A stretch of 64,000 nucleotides of DNA from a virus (Duplodnaviria; Caudoviricetes), in the IMG/VR virus record IMGVR_UViG_3300025924_000017, positions 161,612-225,611 of that record, one strand, 5' to 3'. Below, piece after piece: positions 1,757 to 9,278 of this stretch. The notes beneath the pieces were generated by a model, which had not been told where the DNA came from, made no database searches, and saw only the letters and a program-made list of their open reading frames with translations. How positions within the stretch are numbered: the stretch's first letter is position 1; every line of letters begins with the position of its first letter. The position numbers were made by a program, and so were the translations under genes.

Positions 1757-2209
1757 GTGACCCTTCCAGTTGCACAACCCTTGACGGAAATCGATTTCGC
1801 ATACATCGCTGGTATGATCGACGGTGAGGGCACTATTACGCTCACACGTACCCATCCAAACCAGTTCCGGACACCCGTGCTCAGCCTTAGTAGTACGACG
1901 CCAGAATTGCTGCTTCCCGCACAAGAAGCGTTTGGCGGGCGCGTGCAGACCAAGAAAGCGTCTAAGGCACATCATGCGATCCCTTATGAATGGAGATTGC
2001 GTGGTCATGCGGCCTTGCGAGCAATTGAGAGGCTGTTGCCATATCTAAGGCACCCGGAAAAAGCGAGGCGCGCTAAGCTACTCCTCGGCAACTATAACCG
2101 CGTGACGGTGCGCAACGGGAAATATACCGAAAGTCAACGCCACCAACGGCTGCTGTTCGAGAGCGAATTTCTTGGAGCGCCGGTGCAAATATGTGTTGAC
2201 AAAACATAA
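1757..2209 (+). CDS. free-standing single-motif LAGLIDADG homing endonuclease
   Basis: N-terminal helix motif FAYIAGMIDGEGTI; 150 aa; family-typical YEWRL and LLPYLR.K segments. Confidence 0.85.
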   Translation: MTLPVAQPLTEIDFAYIAGMIDGEGTITLTRTHPNQFRTPVLSLSSTTPELLLPAQEAFGGRVQTKKASKAHHAIPYEWRLRGHAALRAIERLLPYLRHPEKARRAKLLLGNYNRVTVRNGKYTESQRHQRLLFESEFLGAPVQICVDKT

Positions 2210-2224
2210 TACTGCCGTTATACA
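2196..2224 (+). promoter_or_regulatory. sigma70-type promoter for tmRNA / RNA operon
   Basis: TTGACA (2196-2201), 17-nt spacer, TATACA (2219-2224); embedded in the last codons of the LAGLIDADG ORF. Confidence 0.8.
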
Positions 2225-2230
2225 CGACAA

Positions 2231-2590
2231 CATCGTTGTAACTCGGACTTCGAGGAGCACGGACCGGACTCGGGGGCAGTACCCGACCGCTCCACCAAAA
2301 CCCCACCGGGGGTCTAACGCACGAACGGATCGGATAGACCCCGGCCCGTCTGACACAGTTCGGCCGCAATGCCGGATTGGGCGTCCCGGTGAGGTTTTGA
2401 TGGGGCGGAAACAGGATCGACGGACGAGCGAGGCGCAGGGACGCAACGTGGATTGATCTCCAGTCCCTAACGGGATGCTCGATCAAAAAGACAGAAATGT
2501 CGCCAATGACAATGAGCCTGAGGCTCTGCGTTTCGCTGCCTAATAGGTAAGCGCGGTTGGGGAGAACCGGGCAACAGAATCTCCCCGCTT
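2231..2590 (+). ncRNA. ssrA: circularly permuted (two-piece) tmRNA, alphaproteobacterial type; tag ANDNEPEALRFAA
   Basis: Acceptor piece ends with T arm CGGG-GGCAGTA-CCCG and CCGCTCC-A-CCA at 2297; about 104-nt intervening segment; coding piece starts GGGGCGG at 2402 (pairs with CCGCTCC, giving G3.U70); tag frame GCC AAT GAC AAT...GCT GCC TAA at 2502-2543; CCGGGCAACAGAA near the 3' end. Confidence 0.93.
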
Positions 2591-2721
2591 AATTCCCGGA
2601 GACGGGATAACGACTATCTCGCCTGCGGGCGAGGGATGGCGGCAAGTTAGATTCGTGGTTGATCCACGAACAGGTGCCTAAGTCAGGCGTCCGGGAGAAC
2701 GCGACAAAGGAATCTCCCGAC

Positions 2722-2737
2722 TGCTCTTTGACAATTT
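2722..2737 (+). promoter_or_regulatory. rrn-type boxA antitermination element
   Basis: TGCTCTTTGACAATTT is one substitution from the E. coli rrn boxA region TGCTCTTTAACAATTT; lies just before the giant RNA. Confidence 0.7.
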
Positions 2738-2745
2738 GGATCGAA

Positions 2746-3960
2746 TGACACTGACGCCTGCCTTTGGCTTTGATCGTTGCAACGTGAAAAGCTGGTGAAT
2801 TGGCGGACAATGGATTTGGTAGGGACTGACGATAGCGGCGAACCGCGCATAGTGGCGTTGTAACAATAGGGACCGATCCTGATCACACTCCGGTTCAAGT
2901 CCGGTACCGGTGAGCCGAAGTCAGGCGCCAGTGTCATGAGAACCTTCATAGGCGCATCACTCCACCGTAAGGCACGCCAAGGCCGGTCGGTGCAGAAGAC
3001 GAGGGCTAGGGGCCTTGGCGGGCTCCGAAACAACGGGCCGGGCTTGTAACCCGGCAGTGGGACTAAGCCCCTCCCGGGCGGCGTGGGCCGTCTAACGTTG
3101 TAGTCGTGGTGTGTCTATGAAGGTTCTGAAACAGATAGGCCGATACAAGGGCTGTAAGACCTCACGAGGCATGCAGGCGTAGCGGCTACCATTGTGCCAC
3201 GGGATAAAACGCACCGTCGTCATGACACGGGAGCGCCGGGGTGAGCCGAGCGGGGAGCAGCTTGGGAACAGAATGCTCCAAGAATTTTGGCGGTTCGACT
3301 AAGGAAGTCGGCTCGATGATAGGTAGCACCCTTCGAGACAATCCGGTGTCAACTCCGGCCCGTCAGCCCAGTCAGTGTCGCCATTGCAGACGGCGTGACA
3401 CATTCCAAAACTAAATTGTCTGCAAGGCGTGTTTCTCGAAGCGCGAGTGCGGGGAGAGATGTAGCGATGAGCACCGGAAGAAGGCCAACTCCAATCCGGC
3501 GCGACTGCGCAAACATGCGGTTGACTCTGAGCCGATAGTTGGTCTGTTGGCTCACAGACGCAGTCGAGAAGTCAACCGGCAGACCGGCCGTTGCGTTAGG
3601 TCACGAATTCCCGAAAGGGATAGCTGCGACGTCGAAAGACGCTAATGAGCAGGAAGGCCGTAACTCCTGTGCAGCGCAAACGGTCGCGAAATTCATAGCA
3701 GGGTCAACCCGACGAAGCTGAACGCGTCAGTGGAGGGTCGAAGCTAGGGCACGAGGACGACTCAAATCGTGTCTCTCTAGGGGTCAGGTAGATAATAGAC
3801 CGTGCGGTGCGGTCTCCGATCCCAGCCGTTTGAATTCTCGGGGCGCATCAGAACGTCGAGCCCCATGCGAGACTTAAAGACGTGACGTTGGGAGAGGCCC
3901 ATCCAGATTTGAGTTTGAGGACTCGGCGCGACCTTCACGGGTGCAAATCCCGATGGGTCC
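2746..3960 (+). ncRNA. giant ornate structured ncRNA candidate (~1.2 kb; GOLLD-like or new class)
   Basis: No credible ORF. Nested long helices with G.U pairs: 2746-2760/2922-2936, a 22-bp helix 2939-2960/3106-3127, 3243-3249/3308-3314, 3518-3526/3570-3578, 3896-3903/3952-3959. GNRA hairpins TCCC-GAAA-GGGA and CGTC-GAAA-GACG; T-loop-like hairpins at 2890-2904, 3343-3358 and 3938-3952. Confidence 0.75.
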
Positions 3961-3966
3961 TCATTA

Positions 3967-4217
3967 GAGAGCTTTGGTTCGACCAATATCGGTGATCGAC
4001 GCAGGCGCAACGCCAATAAGGCGACCTGTACTAATCCGGAATAAGCTCTCGCCAGTTTTGAGTGTCACGACCCGTATCCCTACATTGGTCAAGATCGTGA
4101 CGCGATAGTCTGTGGCAACCTGTGCCCGCGAGGGTGGCGTATCCAATCGCCTTAATGGCTAGACCACTGAGCGGTGTGGGCAAAGCAGCGAGATGGTGCA
4201 AGGCCATCGACAGAATT
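3967..4217 (+). ncRNA. further structured non-coding element(s)
   Basis: GAGAGCTT (3967-3974) / AAGCTCTC (4043-4050) closes a multiloop; GTCACGA/TCGTGAC; TGCCC/GGGCA enclosing CCC-GCGA-GGG; terminal hairpin GATGG-TGCAAGG-CCATC. Confidence 0.45.
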
Positions 4218-4553
4218 TAAGGACGTGTATGGACCTCAAGACTCTTCAGGACGAAGTTAGCAAGCGCTGGGCGCGTCAGGTTGGCAACCCGTGTCACAAT
4301 TCGGCGGGAGCCAATCACGCTCTCGTCCACATGATGAAGGCCCTTGGTAAGGTCGCTTCTGCACTCAACGATGCCGAACATGAAGGCCGTGGTGTGCAAG
4401 CGAACGAAGTCGAAAATTACCTCGCCGATCTGGTGATCTGCGCAGCGCGATTTTCCGATGGTGTCGTCGATCTCGGCGCTGCATGCGCTGCTCGACTTGA
4501 GGAGAAATTTCCGATCTAATCGGACGTGATGGTGCAAGGCCATCGACAGAATT
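4192..4553 (+). repeat. 26-bp exact direct repeat flanking the MazG-like ORF (4192-4217 and 4528-4553)
   Basis: GATGGTGCAAGGCCATCGACAGAATT occurs twice, immediately before and after ORF 4229..4519. Confidence 0.95.
4229..4519 (+). CDS. MazG-like all-alpha NTP pyrophosphohydrolase fold protein (degenerate motif)
   Basis: MDLKTLQ start, EVENYLADLVIC segment resembling the E-x-x-D helix, C-terminal RLEEKF; first acidic helix replaced by KALGKV; SD AAGGA. Confidence 0.6.
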   Translation: MDLKTLQDEVSKRWARQVGNPCHNSAGANHALVHMMKALGKVASALNDAEHEGRGVQANEVENYLADLVICAARFSDGVVDLGAACAARLEEKFPI

Positions 4554-4555
4554 AA

Positions 4556-4635
4556 AGCGGGGTAGAGGAGCCCGGTCGTCCTCGCCAGCCTCATAAGCTG
4601 GAAATCGTGTGGTTCGAATCCCACCTCCGCAACCA
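4556..4635 (+). tRNA. tRNA-Met(CAT), initiator-like
   Basis: AGCGGGG/CTCCGCA with 1:72 mismatch, D stem GAGG/CCTC (A11:U24), anticodon arm CCAGC-CTCATAA-GCTGG, TTCGAAT loop, ACCA end. Confidence 0.9.
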
Positions 4636-4846: not shown

Positions 4847-4923
4847 TGTGCTTTAGCTCAGTCAGACAGAGCGCCGGATTCATATCCCGGAGGTCGCCGG
4901 GGCGGAACCGGCAAGCACTACCA
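4847..4923 (+). tRNA. atypical tRNA with CAT anticodon (Met or Ile2), non-canonical T loop
   Basis: TGTGCTT/AAGCACT-A-CCA, D arm GCTC...GAGC, CCGGA-TTCATAT-CCCGG, T arm GCCGG-GGCGGAA-CCGGC lacking TTC. Confidence 0.65.
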
Positions 4924-5149
4924 ACACCTGTCCCAATGTAGAGTTTCATTGAAAATGCCGCTGGTTTCATAGCGGTGACTTTCGCTTTTGCTACCTCGGC
5001 CAAAGCCGAATCGCTCCATTACGGCTCCTCTGAGCCTTCGATTCGGAAGTCGCCGACACACACGCAGGCTGTTGATGGAAATCGACAACGGTCGCCCGTG
5101 CGATTGCAGTCGGCCCGAGCGCCTTACACCTCCAGCATTGGAGGTAAGC

Positions 5150-5633: not shown

Positions 5634-6005
5634 GTGGTCGGACAGGCTCAATTCTTCACCGAAGATGAGGCGGCAGCGTTTTTGAAGATGACGCCGCGCA
5701 TGCTCGCGGAACGGCGTCGCGCCGGGAAGATCGGGCATCATAAAGAAGGCCGATACGTTTCCTACAATCTCGACGATCTGTTGGCTTACAGCGCGCGCAT
5801 CCGGGAGAATGGAACTTGTCAAGAAGTCGGAAAAGCACCGTCGCTCGGATTGGGCAGCACGGCCCATACTGGCTCAGCAAGCGCACCGGCTCAGCCAATT
5901 GGCACCTCACGTACTACGACGAACAAAGGCGGAAGACCGTCCAAGAGAGCCTTGGCACAACGGACACAGCAGCCGCAGAAGCCCAAGTTGTTGCCCATTA
6001 TCTAG
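5634..6005 (+). CDS. excisionase-like helix-turn-helix protein (MerR/HTH_17 type)
   Basis: FTEDEAAAFLKMTPRMLAERRRAGKI...GRYVSYNLDDL; directly upstream of and overlapping the integrase. Confidence 0.75.
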   Translation: MVGQAQFFTEDEAAAFLKMTPRMLAERRRAGKIGHHKEGRYVSYNLDDLLAYSARIRENGTCQEVGKAPSLGLGSTAHTGSASAPAQPIGTSRTTTNKGGRPSKRALAQRTQQPQKPKLLPII

Positions 6006-6997
6006 CGACACTCCCAAATAACAAACCGCTCAAGGAAGAGGAAGCGACGTTCCACAGCGTCCTTGACCTCTACTATGAGACCTATGGCAAAAAGCTTGCG
6101 AGCGCGGGCGATGTCAAGCTCTCGATCAAATACTGGAAGGAAGCCATCGGTCCCACTGTCACGCTGGATAAGGTGACGATTGGGCTCGTGGAGGCCTTCA
6201 TCGAGCAACTGCGGGGACTGGGCTTCTCGGAAGGCTACATCAGCCGCATTCTTTCCGTAGCACGGGCGGCCGTAAAGCGCGCGCTTCGTACCGGTAAGAT
6301 CAGCGTCGCGCCCTTCATCCCCGACAACGAAAATCGCCGCCAGAAGCTCAACAAGAAGCCTAAAGGGCGTCCGCTGGAATTGCGCGAGATGGCTATCCTC
6401 TTCCTGTGCGCCGATCCTGCACACCTGCGTGTGTTCATGAGCTTGATGATCAACACGCTCTGCCGCCCTGACGCCGCGCTCGATCTCGGACCGGCTCAGA
6501 TTGACCTCGACAAAGGGGTCATCTTCCTCAACCCCGAGGACCGCGCCCAGACCAACAAGTTCCGACCTGCGGTCCCGATCACGACCGGCGTCCGTCCCAT
6601 CGTCGAGGGATGCCCGGCTGAGGCGTTCGTCAATGTGGATGGGCATAAGATCGGCGAGATCAAGAAGGCTTGGCGCACCATGGTGCGGCGGTCTGGCCTA
6701 CCCAATGCCGACCGCATCAAGCCCTATTCGATCCGCCACACCATGGGGCGAGAGCTTCGCGCAGGCGGGGCGTCCGGGGAGGACGTGAGCCTCTTCCTCG
6801 GGCACATTCCGGTCGGCGCAAACGAGGTCACGAGCGTCTACAGCCCCTACGATCCCAACTACCTGAAGAAGGCCGTCACGATCATTGAGGCCTACTGGGA
6901 TCGGCTGCGGTGGGAGGTCGAGAAGCAGGCTGCGGTATTCACGCCACCGCCACTTCAGCCCGGCAAGCGGAACGATCTCCTCCAGAACGCCGCGTGA
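5816..6997 (+). CDS. int: tyrosine recombinase / phage integrase
   Basis: Catalytic-box motifs LCRPDAALDL (R), YSIRHT (H/Y-x-x-R), FLGH and VYSPY (Tyr); N-terminal arm-binding-like GPYWLSKR; att site downstream. Confidence 0.92.
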   Translation: MSRSRKSTVARIGQHGPYWLSKRTGSANWHLTYYDEQRRKTVQESLGTTDTAAAEAQVVAHYLATLPNNKPLKEEEATFHSVLDLYYETYGKKLASAGDVKLSIKYWKEAIGPTVTLDKVTIGLVEAFIEQLRGLGFSEGYISRILSVARAAVKRALRTGKISVAPFIPDNENRRQKLNKKPKGRPLELREMAILFLCADPAHLRVFMSLMINTLCRPDAALDLGPAQIDLDKGVIFLNPEDRAQTNKFRPAVPITTGVRPIVEGCPAEAFVNVDGHKIGEIKKAWRTMVRRSGLPNADRIKPYSIRHTMGRELRAGGASGEDVSLFLGHIPVGANEVTSVYSPYDPNYLKKAVTIIEAYWDRLRWEVEKQAAVFTPPPLQPGKRNDLLQNAA

Positions 6998-7029
6998 ACA
7001 AAACAGCATTCGAAATCGTCCAAGACGTT

Positions 7030-7090
7030 GAAAGTGCGCCGTGTTCTCTGTGGCGAAACTGCGACGAAAGTGCGGTGAAATGCACGTAAA
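7030..7090 (+). repeat. candidate integrase arm-type binding sites
   Basis: GAAAGTGCG at 7030 and 7066, GAAACTGCG at 7055, GAAATGCAC at 7077; 11-bp periodicity between int and att. Confidence 0.45.
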
Positions 7091-7210
7091 GTCGTGTATC
7101 GTGACGTAACCAAATGTAACTGACGCGATCTACGGCAAAATCACCCCGAAATGTCAGACCCTAAAAATTACCGTAAAACCTTGATTTTCCTCGATTTTAT
7201 CTGAATTCAC

Positions 7211-7260
7211 TGGTCGGAGAGAGAGGATTCGAACCTCCGGCCCCCACGTCCCGAACGTGA
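7211..7260 (-). mobile_element. attP core: 3' half of tRNA-Pro(CGG)
   Basis: Minus strand TCACG-TTCGGGA-CGTGG-GGGCC-GGAGG-TTCGAAT-CCTCT-CTCTCCG-A-CCA; no 5' half present; 214 bp from the int stop; phage genes on both sides. Confidence 0.88.
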
Positions 7261-7328
7261 TAATCCCAAGTTTAAGTGATTGATTTCATTCAACTTTTTT
7301 GGAGGTTTGCGGCGCAATGCGGGTGAAA

Positions 7329-9278
7329 TCATTGAACTTTTGTTGGTCTGCGGCTGTCCATCACCGCAACAATATGTTCTTCCTTCTCGTACGCCCGCTG
7401 AGCCATCTTACAATCCAGAGACCCGTTCGCTGTCAAGAAGAAGCCCATCAGCTTGTCCGCCAACTGCCCGATACGGCAGATGCGGTCGAAGTCCTGTTCC
7501 AGCTTCGTGGGTACCCAGTCGCCCTCCAAGAAGGCGCAGTCCTTTGCCCGGGTGAGGGTGTAGCCGACGCCGCCGGAGTCGTGCTGGAGGAAGATGATCC
7601 GGCAGTTCTCGTCGTCTTGGAACTTATCGACGCGACCCTGCCGCTTGTTCGGCGCGACCCCGCCGTAGATCAGCATCGGGTCGTAGGCCGCCATAGCCTC
7701 CTGTGCAGCCTTGAGCACGTCGGTGTGGTAGCCGAAGCAGACCAGCTTTTCGCCGCCGTCTAGGAACGTCTTGAGCCACGGGATCGCAGCGGAGAGCTTT
7801 GCGAGGCCTAGCTCCCGGCGGACCGACGCCATCTCCTCGAACAGGACGGCGATGGCGGGCGGCTCCAGTCCGAGAACCGAGGTCGCATAGTCCATGTTGA
7901 GCGCCCGGCTGTTCGGCTTGTCGCGGTCGTACATGGCGTCCTCGAAGCCCAAGAGGCTCGCCGCCCTGACGATCTGGGAGCCTTCGACGCCCTCGCGCCG
8001 GATGCGGTCCGCCTCGCTCTCGTTCTCCCGGACCATCGCCTCGTAGAGCTTGAGCGCCTGTGCGAGTTCGTCCTCTCGCGCGACGACCTGCCTGATCTCC
8101 GGGCTGTCGAGGATGATGATCTGGCGCGACTTGGGTGGAAGCTCGGGGAGCACCTCCGCCTTGAGACGGCGGATCATGAAGGTCGAGCGAATTTTCTCGC
8201 CTAGCTCCTCCAGATTACTCGCGCCGGAGAAGTTGTAGTCGCCTTTCCGGCGCCCCTTCTCGTCGTAACCGCCGAGGGTCTGATCCCAATAGCCGCCACA
8301 GTAGCGATAGCCGAACTGAACTCGACCGCTGTCGGGGTCACGCGGATCGGGATTTCGTCCGAGACCATCCGGGTCGAACGCCTTGATCATCGGCCACAGT
8401 TCGATGGGCCGGTTCATCATCGGTGTGCCGGTCAGGAAGATGCGCCGGTTCGCTTCGATGGCGCTGTACCAGACGGGCTTCCATCCGGTGGACTTGTCGC
8501 GCTTCTTACCGCCGAGGATGAAGAGTGTGCGTCCGCTGTCGGCCGTCTTCAGCGCGTGCGCTTCATCGCAAATCAAAAGGTCCCACGAAACGGCTTTGAT
8601 CTGATCGTGGAAACGACTCAGGATGTCGTAGTTGATAATGACGACGTCAGTATCGGGCCAGAATTCCTTGATGATCTCTTTGGTGCGAAAGCGCGGCTGG
8701 CCTTTACGCTTGCCCGACTTGAAGACGCCGATCTGCTCTTTGACTTCGAGGTTTGTCTCAGCGATGCCGACCGAGACGTTCTTGGTCTTCCAGAGTTCAA
8801 ACTCGCGGCGCCAGTGTTCCTTAAGCGACGCCGGGGCGACGACTAGGCAGCGGCGCGCTTTCGGGTCGCCATTGAACACGCCGACGCCCATGGGGGACTT
8901 GCCGAGCCCCGGCTGATCGCCGATGAGCGTGTCTTTGCGTTGAAGCGCGTATTCGATGCCCGCACACTGATAAGGGAAGAAGGCGAACGGCAGCCCGGTG
9001 CGCGGATGCATCCCCGGTGGAACCGGCGGCTCGTAGTGTGTGCTGTTGGCGAAGGAGAGGTCGTAGGACGCCGCCAGCGTCTCTTGGCGCGCAATGACGT
9101 GCGCAAGCGCTGCGGGCGTCCATTCGACGCCCTGCACGCGCTCGGCGATTTCCTGACTGTCGGTGATCCATGCCTTGCGGACGGGAGACCATTTGAACCC
9201 GGCGCCTTTCCATAGCGCTCGTTCGTCCCATGTCCCAAGGCCAAAGAAGAACCCGTTCTTGAAGTGAATGCGGGCCAA
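7329..9278 (-). CDS. SNF2-family (HARP/SMARCAL1-like) helicase
   Basis: DQPGLGKS (motif I), DEAH (II), LTGTPMMN (III), SGGVGYTL (V), QDFDRICRIGQ (VI). Confidence 0.92.
   Translation of the reverse strand: MARIHFKNGFFFGLGTWDERALWKGAGFKWSPVRKAWITDSQEIAERVQGVEWTPAALAHVIARQETLAASYDLSFANSTHYEPPVPPGMHPRTGLPFAFFPYQCAGIEYALQRKDTLIGDQPGLGKSPMGVGVFNGDPKARRCLVVAPASLKEHWRREFELWKTKNVSVGIAETNLEVKEQIGVFKSGKRKGQPRFRTKEIIKEFWPDTDVVIINYDILSRFHDQIKAVSWDLLICDEAHALKTADSGRTLFILGGKKRDKSTGWKPVWYSAIEANRRIFLTGTPMMNRPIELWPMIKAFDPDGLGRNPDPRDPDSGRVQFGYRYCGGYWDQTLGGYDEKGRRKGDYNFSGASNLEELGEKIRSTFMIRRLKAEVLPELPPKSRQIIILDSPEIRQVVAREDELAQALKLYEAMVRENESEADRIRREGVEGSQIVRAASLLGFEDAMYDRDKPNSRALNMDYATSVLGLEPPAIAVLFEEMASVRRELGLAKLSAAIPWLKTFLDGGEKLVCFGYHTDVLKAAQEAMAAYDPMLIYGGVAPNKRQGRVDKFQDDENCRIIFLQHDSGGVGYTLTRAKDCAFLEGDWVPTKLEQDFDRICRIGQLADKLMGFFLTANGSLDCKMAQRAYEKEEHIVAVMDSRRPTKVQ

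Follow-up and report, generated by a model that had tools for sequence, protein, structure and literature searches.

The closest described systems to the locus discussed here are the GOLLD and ROOL RNAs. GOLLD is a large, ornate, phage-associated RNA that was seen by cryo-electron microscopy to form a nanocage (bioRxiv 10.1101/2024.12.08.627333), and both GOLLD and ROOL are typically located in phage islands of tRNA and transfer-messenger RNA (tmRNA) genes, on the strand of the tRNAs (bioRxiv 10.1101/2024.12.08.627333; PMC5737381). Here we describe the long spacer between a tmRNA gene and a tRNA-Met gene in the IMG/VR virus record IMGVR_UViG_3300025924_000017, which has 225,611 bp and is rated complete by CheckV; the stretch analysed (the window) is the last 64 kb of this record. 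A preliminary description had taken positions 2746-3960 of the window for one giant, ornate non-coding RNA of about 1.2 kb, i.e. either an enlarged GOLLD-like RNA in a new host class or a new class. In our analysis two modules of the spacer, D1 and B, turned out to be conserved folded RNA, and the reading that we prefer, to which we give about even weight, is that the spacer is a patchwork of independently folding, co-transcribed RNA modules and not a single co-folded giant RNA.

At a general level the spacer resembles GOLLD in several respects: it is non-coding, phage-borne and placed beside tRNA genes with which it shares the strand, pseudoknots and tetraloop hairpins are among its elements, and its length is partly variable. 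On the other hand, it has no Rfam match at E<=10, it comes from another host class, conservation is limited to about 300 of its ~1560 nt, a conserved global architecture was not found, and each module can be missing on its own. Similarly, ROOL (Weinberg et al. 2017, PMC5737381) is also a large, structured region free of open reading frames (ORFs) that is found in phages or prophages near tRNAs, but the spacer matches no ROOL model and shows no conserved multi-helix core across the region.

The search for known families was carried out with cmscan and all 4227 Rfam families, using gathering thresholds on the 64 kb, E<=10 on 6 kb, and E<=10 with lax filters on 1.65 kb. Inside 2635-4190 no match was obtained at E<=10, and this includes GOLLD, ROOL, tRNA, group I and II introns, RNase P and Y RNA. 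The GOLLD and ROOL covariance models remained silent even in the 1.65-kb scan with lax filters, so the suggestion of a GOLLD-like RNA in a new host class did not hold; both identities are ruled out by this result, though the tRNA-adjacent location in a phage would fit GOLLD. A blastn search against 50,697 GenBank phages gave no match to the region.

Conserved and unconserved parts of the spacer

The spacer, its boundaries and its parts are listed below in window positions, where z is the fold z-score against dinucleotide shuffles.

2192..2634, plus strand: gene for a permuted (two-piece) tmRNA of the alpha type, which bounds the spacer upstream (Rfam alpha_tmRNA 102.8 bits, tmRNA_permuted 84.6 bits)
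2635..2745, plus strand: leader with a T-loop-like hairpin, a copy (2693-2718) of the tmRNA 3' hairpin and a boxA-like word; z -1.4
2746..2936, plus strand: module D1, a domain of ~190 nt with a 24-bp closing stem
2939..3127, plus strand: module D2, a domain of ~190 nt with a 22-bp closing stem that includes 3 G.U pairs
3128..3603, plus strand: unconserved middle segment; z -0.9, alignments to relatives not above shuffled controls
3604..3694, plus strand: module B, ~90 nt with two tetraloop hairpins and an H-type pseudoknot
3609-3612/3617-3620, within B: hairpin H1, UCCC-GAAA-GGGA, with a GAAA loop
3630-3633/3638-3641, within B: hairpin H2, with a GAAA loop in the window
3649-3654/3665-3670 and 3656-3660/3681-3685, within B: pseudoknot stems S1 and S2, with an A-rich linker
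3695..4192, plus strand: unconserved 3' segment; z -0.4, no significant alignment to relatives
3896-3960, plus strand: compact tRNA-like element with an acceptor-like stem of 7-8 bp and a T-arm GGG-TGCAAAT-CCC, called by ARAGORN at 80% only
4189..4557, plus strand: cassette with a MazG-like ORF between spacer and tRNA-Met, with 33-nt direct repeats at both ends
4556..4635, plus strand: tRNA-Met (CAU), the downstream boundary of the spacer (ARAGORN)

The region is non-coding, as had been proposed, and the ORF-free stretch is wider than 2746-3960: it runs from the end of the tmRNA at 2635 to 4192. The longest frame inside it, on the minus strand, has 116 amino acids, the codon-phase GC spread is 0.03-0.16 as opposed to 0.25-0.5 in the flanking genes, and a Pfam search of all spacer frames of at least 57 amino acids gave no match. 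In two relatives, L045 and L052, gene callers place ORFs of 169-171 amino acids antisense to the spacer, over different parts of it. These share only a patch of 44 residues that lies over the nucleotide-conserved module B at non-colinear positions; they have no Pfam match, and there is no such ORF in the window. No reading frame is thus conserved, and a protein-coding gene or pseudogene is ruled out by the missing periodicity, Pfam match and conserved frame. The strand is that of the tmRNA and the tRNAs, i.e. the plus strand, since only this strand gives the T-loop of D1, the loops of B, which are of the GNRA and UUCG types, and the three G.U pairs of the D2 stem, with a minimum free energy of -99.7 as opposed to -83.0. 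On the plus strand neither a sigma-70-like promoter nor an intrinsic terminator is predicted between the tmRNA (from 2200) and ~4950-4956, which makes it plausible that the spacer is co-transcribed with the tmRNA and the tRNAs.

Loci of relatives were fetched from IMG/VR, ENA, JGI and Logan via the SNF2 helicase, DNA polymerase A and the members of their clusters; the contigs L046, L047, L053 and L064 end before the island or do not have it. The SNF2 helicase is a stable neighbour of the RNA island. Other routes were less productive: homologs of the integrase led to unrelated integrative elements, the MazG-like neighbour was rejected as an anchor as its homologs in other phages sit outside RNA islands, and a metagenome scan using the SNF2 helicase gave no useful locus. 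The order tRNA-Cys, tmRNA, spacer, tRNA-Met, tRNA-Met is kept in all fetched relatives, and the length from tmRNA to tRNA-Met varies as follows.

G004 and G006 (220-kb phages, probably phiCbK proper): ~180-200 nt
G005: 526 nt
G007: 743 nt
L045 (among the closest relatives, SNF2 protein 78% identical): 820 nt
L054: 837 nt
L052: 1018 nt
this phage: 1920 nt, of which ~370 nt are the MazG cassette

The only pieces of the window's spacer that recur in relatives are D1 and B, which amount to about 300 of ~1560 nt of conserved folded RNA; they are known from five phage contigs only and stand in the same order in three phages. D1 has homologs in L045 (13812-14011, minus strand) and L052 (13606-13812, minus strand), with nhmmer E values of 1e-37 to 1e-54. 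Between the window and these two relatives six pairs of the closing stem are changed on both sides with pairing kept; the stem of an internal hairpin comes in three unrelated sequences. The interior contains the conserved blocks GTTGCAA, ACGATAGC and ACAATAGGGACCGA as well as a canonical T-arm, CCGG-TTCAAGT-CCGG, one pair of which is A-U in L045 and C-G in the window and in L052. L054 lacks exactly the stem-bounded D1, although its SNF2 falls into one 90%-identity cluster with those of L045 and L052, and G007 is also without D1.

Two further ideas were rejected. An antisense pairing between D1 2820-2833 and tmRNA 2456-2469 is a match of 9-14 nt that is not kept in L045, and we treat it as chance. 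A bacterial Y RNA (the YrlA-type tRNA mimic) has no Rfam match here and the phage genome encodes no TROVE domain; moreover, the module order is permuted in YrlA and not permuted in D1.

Module B is found in six copies: one each in the window, L045, L052 and L054, and two in G007. In the alignment 90% of the cells pair; sliding the partners by 1-3 columns lowers this to 31-45%. Double changes affect six pairs. Covariation is seen in H2 and in S2, where a C-G pair has become U-A in one such change. The loop of H2 reads GAAA, GCAA or UUCG, and its stem is different in every phage. The pairing and covariation values of B were matched by 0-4 of 500 shuffles; as the six sequences are related, we regard the covariation as supportive, not conclusive. 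A covariance model of B, termed R1, scores 44-98 bits on the six copies and finds nothing else in 17 loci or in the phage's own genome. A GTDB pattern scan for the B pseudoknot gave four chance matches (9-13 bits with R1), and IMG/VR pattern scans for the B motif, AATTCCCGARAGGGATAGC and the D1 blocks gave G007 alone or nothing. A possible degenerate second copy of the pseudoknot is located at ~3468-3530 in the middle segment, and R1 misses it at E<=1.

The rest of the spacer is of a different character. D2, the 476-nt middle and the 498-nt 3' segment have no counterpart in the relatives or in the phage's own genome, local alignments being no better than shuffled controls, and for D2 the GenBank phages gave no homolog either. 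The interior of D2 contains a 10-bp hairpin and an anticodon-like hairpin, GCCGGG-CTTGTAA-CCCGGC, at 3037-3055. In the L045 group there is group-specific material between D1 and B, including a hairpin whose loop, ACGATARC, is conserved and whose stem occurs in three different versions. Near the 3' end of their spacers L045, L052 and L054 also share a mini tRNA-like element of 50 nt, invariant and with a terminal CCA, at a position that matches that of the 3896-3960 element of the window.

There are a few other observations on the spacers of this group. The word GATAG occurs about 6 times in 1.56 kb (2836, 3132, 3316, 3535, 3619 and 4106) versus ~1.5 expected, an excess to be taken as approximate. 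In the window it often appears as CGATAGC or GGGATAGC, and it also occurs in the hairpin loops (ACGATARC) of L045, L052 and L054; a role in protein binding or in a tertiary contact is conceivable. The spacer of G005 contains a domain of ~140 nt with a closing stem of ~23 bp (L042 5240-5385), which has the architecture of D1 and D2 without sequence similarity to either, and the whole G005 spacer folds at z -3.75. In G007 the 5' third of tRNA-Met is duplicated (L039 6312-6520, minus strand), and two copies of a ~75-nt three-way junction, with closing stems of 9-10 bp (TTTGTAACAC...GTGTTACAAA and TGTAAGGCC...GGCCTTACA), precede the intact tRNA-Met; the whole spacer folds at z -6.0. G007 also has a complete-looking tRNA-Met-like cloverleaf (L039 ~6510-6590, minus strand) that is missed by default ARAGORN, with the acceptor GCGAGG/CCUCGC, a CAU anticodon loop and the T-arm GGUCGG-UGCAAGU-CCGAUC.

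All helices that had been proposed for the window are present in its sequence, including 3243-3249/3308-3314, 3500-3506/3682-3688 and 3518-3526/3570-3578. Helix 2939-2960/3106-3127, which closes D2, has 22 bp, 19 Watson-Crick and 3 G.U. Helix 2746-2760/2922-2936 forms 14 of 15 pairs and is extended by 2762-2770/2912-2920; overall, 2746-2769/2913-2936 is a stem of 24 bp with two mismatches. The long-range pairing 2822-2831/3361-3369 requires a bulged A, and 3500-3506/3682-3688 competes with the conserved stem S2 of B. The two GAAA tetraloops are found at 3613 and 3634, the T-loop-like hairpins at 2889 and 3937. By our own estimate, helices of 7-9 bp are at chance level, as many of them are expected in 1.2 kb at 58% GC, and the only helices beyond chance are the closing stems of D1 and D2. 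Among the helices proposed earlier, covariation was seen in the D1 closing stem.

The folding energies point in the same direction. The tmRNA, used as control, has z -3.4, and 2736-3130 has z -4.4 on the plus and -3.9 on the minus strand. D1 gives z -2.4 and D2 z -5.0 (minus strand -3.8), and since their interiors score +1.0 and -0.4, respectively, the stability of both is due to the closing stems alone. The remaining ~1 kb behaves like its shuffles (3128-3603 z -0.9, 3695-4192 z -0.4, 3128-3960 z -1.2). GNRA and UNCG tetraloop hairpins show no enrichment: 4 were observed versus 1.9 expected, and 72 of 500 shuffles had as many. Sliding 150-nt z-scores are flat, a measure that is insensitive inasmuch as tRNA-Met itself gives only -0.1 to -1.2. 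The idea of a region packed with nested complementarity thus describes the first 390 nt; the rest folds like shuffled sequence.

The tRNA-like parts are not tRNAs in the strict sense. For both the interior of D1 (2825-2912) and the 3896-3960 element there is no Rfam tRNA match at E<=10 and no default ARAGORN call; ARAGORN reports the two elements only at the 85% and 80% thresholds, at which it makes 111 and 336 calls, respectively, in the whole genome versus 30 real tRNAs. Relaxed tRNA searches of the spacer, with and without introns, gave calls at the false-positive rate (~1.4 per kb at 80%).

A proposed patchwork of modules and its alternatives

If the spacer is a patchwork, the following scheme can be proposed. 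It would be the enlarged spacer of a non-coding operon with the order tRNA-Cys, tmRNA, spacer, tRNA-Met, tRNA-Met, in an integrase-carrying giant phage related to phiCbK. D1 and B are in this view conserved RNAs under selection that belong to undescribed families, the interior of D1 being tRNA-like with a real T-arm, while D2 and about 1 kb more would be lineage-specific insertions. We consider the modules to be separate units because they have closing stems of their own and because their occurrence and copy number vary independently: D1 is either cleanly present or cleanly missing, G007 has two copies of B, and D2 belongs to this phage alone. RNase III cleaves helices of this size, 22-24 bp, and tRNA-like elements are substrates of RNase P and RNase Z. 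As the stems and the tRNA-like elements of the spacer suit these enzymes, we infer a polycistronic precursor that is processed by host RNases. The island would be read from the tmRNA promoter, RNase III would excise modules at the helices of at least 22 bp, and RNase P and RNase Z would cut at the tmRNA, the tRNAs and the tRNA-like elements. The putative products are stable RNAs of ~90-190 nt that might act close to the functions of their neighbours, e.g. by mimicry of tRNA or tmRNA or as decoys for the translation machinery.

Several points weigh against this proposal. A single long, stable transcript would remain compatible with the data, as co-transcription and processing are predictions made from the sequence. 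rRNA and RNase P also grow stem-closed peripheral domains, so that turnover alone is no proof of separate RNAs. The covariation statistics are weak, as the phages, which are closely related, provide only three sequences of D1 and six of B, and the boxA-like word that would suggest an rrn-style processing unit is not conserved in the relatives.

The alternative with most to be said for it is, in our opinion, possible but doubtful. It holds that the spacer is mostly non-functional, that D1 and B are cis-acting processing or stability signals for the maturation of tmRNA and tRNA-Met, comparable to the flanking stems of rRNA operons, and that the rest is neutral filler derived from decayed tRNA genes and insertion scars. 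The very fast turnover of length and sequence among the relatives and the lack of a thermodynamic signal in most of the region would agree with this, as would the MazG cassette and a homing-endonuclease-sized ORF, which show that the island accepts insertions. The T-arm of D1, the anticodon-like hairpin of D2 and the 3896-3960 element could be taken for tRNA remnants, although the relaxed tRNA calls do not exceed the false-positive rate. D1, however, is ~190 nt long and includes several invariant blocks of 8-14 nt, which exceeds what a cleavage stem would require, and it lies at least 110 nt away from the end of the tmRNA; a pseudoknot that is kept by compensatory changes and duplicated in G007, like that of B, would be unusual for a simple processing site. 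A purely DNA-level explanation, in which the inverted repeats are insertions resembling miniature inverted-repeat transposable elements, recombination sites or an origin, seems very improbable to us. It could account for two adjacent inverted repeats of 22-32 nt, for the similar z-scores of the two strands of 2736-3130 and for the clean presence or absence of D1 between relatives, but each module occurs only once in the 225-kb genome, the stems show covariation between phages instead of conservation of sequence, and the G.U pairs, T-loop and GNRA loops are strand-specific. Furthermore, there are neither target-site duplications around D1 and D2 nor an AT-rich unwinding region.

The giant RNA of the preliminary description was not borne out, as ~80% of its length has neither a thermodynamic signal nor a homolog. 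A broader form of it, i.e. one ornate RNA of 1.2-1.5 kb that represents a new class analogous to GOLLD and ROOL, with D1 and B as core, D2, the middle and the 3' segment as expansion domains, and perhaps the ability to form multimers, is in our view unlikely. The location in a phage tRNA/tmRNA island on the tRNA strand is typical of GOLLD and ROOL, D1 and B keep their order in three phages, stem-closed insertions resemble the expansion segments of large RNAs, and no internal promoter or terminator is predicted. Yet no Rfam family matches, about 1 kb has z -0.4 to -1.2 and no homolog, and a conserved long-range helix was not found. Furthermore, L054 and G007 can do without D1, G007 has B twice, and in the phiCbK-type phages G004 and G006 the corresponding spacer is only ~200 nt long. 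We find it rather improbable that the whole spacer is one ornate RNA of ~1.5 kb in the more specific sense of a new class limited to temperate giant phages related to phiCbK, with a D1 and B pseudoknot core and a stem-closed periphery, that works with the phage tmRNA or forms higher-order particles like those of GOLLD and ROOL.

Genomic setting of the RNA island

The stretch 2635-4192 belongs to a small second RNA island of the phage, whose whole genome contains 30 tRNA genes and one tmRNA. The remaining features of the island and its surroundings, and the tRNA with a CUA anticodon found in relatives, are as follows.

1609-1683: tRNA-Cys
1757-2209: ORF of 150 amino acids without Pfam match
4847-4920: second tRNA after tRNA-Met
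5816-6997: tyrosine integrase encoded by the phage
7329-9278, minus strand: SNF2 helicase gene
L045 15156-15228, L052 14938-15013 and L039 8523-8596, all minus strand: CUA-anticodon tRNA in relatives

ARAGORN places the tmRNA at 2203-2634, with the tag VANDNEPEALRFAA, and the Rfam tRNA model scores the two downstream tRNAs (4556-4635 and 4847-4920) at 45.4 and 43.7 bits. In the leader, the copy of the tmRNA 3' hairpin is a direct repeat with 81% identity. The boxA-like 13-mer TGCTCTTTGACAA (2722-2734) occurs once in the window, 12 nt before the closing stem of D1, and agrees at 12 of 13 positions with the rrn boxA consensus. Neither this word nor the related pattern GCTCTTTRACAA is present in the RNA islands of any fetched relative.

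The island takes up insertions, as can be seen from a homing-endonuclease-sized ORF and from the MazG cassette with its duplicated 33-nt leader of tRNA-Met. The two repeats of the cassette (4189-4221 and 4525-4557) are 94% identical, and because the second one directly adjoins the 5' end of tRNA-Met, the cassette looks like an insertion into the tRNA-Met leader that duplicated the leader. The MazG-like ORF has coding periodicity (codon-phase GC spread 0.27-0.33), and its homologs align from residue 11 on.

The SNF2 helicase is ~50-53% identical to those of the Caulobacter phages Magneto, CcrPW and CcrSC and of the Brevundimonas phage Bajun, and for this reason we place the phage in the wider phiCbK-like group. 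An identical SNF2 protein is found on a 389,787-nt ENA contig, where it is followed by genes for NERD, MZB and a UvrD-like helicase and not by the integrase and the RNA island. Between SNF2 and integrase (~7000-7400) the GC content dips to 47%. The phage is probably integrated in that contig, with attP between SNF2 and integrase. The tRNA with the CUA anticodon, which lies between tRNA-Cys and tmRNA in the relatives, is called tRNA-Pyl by ARAGORN and is a potential amber suppressor; the matching position of the window is taken by the 150-amino-acid ORF. Finally, the phage's own genome has another 1.2-kb stretch without an ORF of at least 100 amino acids (G000:C1:39344-40552), far from both tRNA clusters.

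Comparison with rRNA operons and the T4 tRNA cluster

Structured non-coding RNAs in phage tRNA islands are of a kind already known, and D1 and B match no described family. What is new are two undescribed RNA motifs behind a phage tmRNA, i.e. a tRNA-like, stem-closed domain of ~190 nt and a unit of ~90 nt with two hairpins and a pseudoknot. Long gene-free stretches recur in phage tRNA islands and are easily taken for giant RNAs, and the present case separates the selected parts from the filler.

The spacer can also be compared to two other systems. rRNA operons carry a boxA antitermination word and long RNase III processing stems in the leader and the spacer. The likeness, which is one of sequence, consists in a boxA-like 13-mer followed, after 12 nt, by a 24-bp stem around a structured RNA. 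The spacer differs in that the boxA-like word is absent from the RNA islands of the relatives, and the enclosed RNAs are of ~145 nt and not rRNA. If D1 and B were only processing signals, the tmRNA/tRNA operon of the phage would be built like an rRNA operon.

The other system is the tRNA cluster of phage T4, which contains the stable small RNAs species 1 and 2 (rnaC/rnaD), which are cut from a polycistronic precursor by the tRNA-processing enzymes of the host. No sequence relationship to the modules is expected, and the modules are larger, have closing stems of 22-24 bp and are located beside a tmRNA. If stable D1 and B RNAs are indeed released, they would be new candidates for a control by the phage, in Caulobacter-type hosts, of translation, of ribosome rescue or of defences that target tRNAs. 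The basic arrangement is the same as in T4, in as much as both cases present structured RNAs other than tRNAs within a phage tRNA operon.

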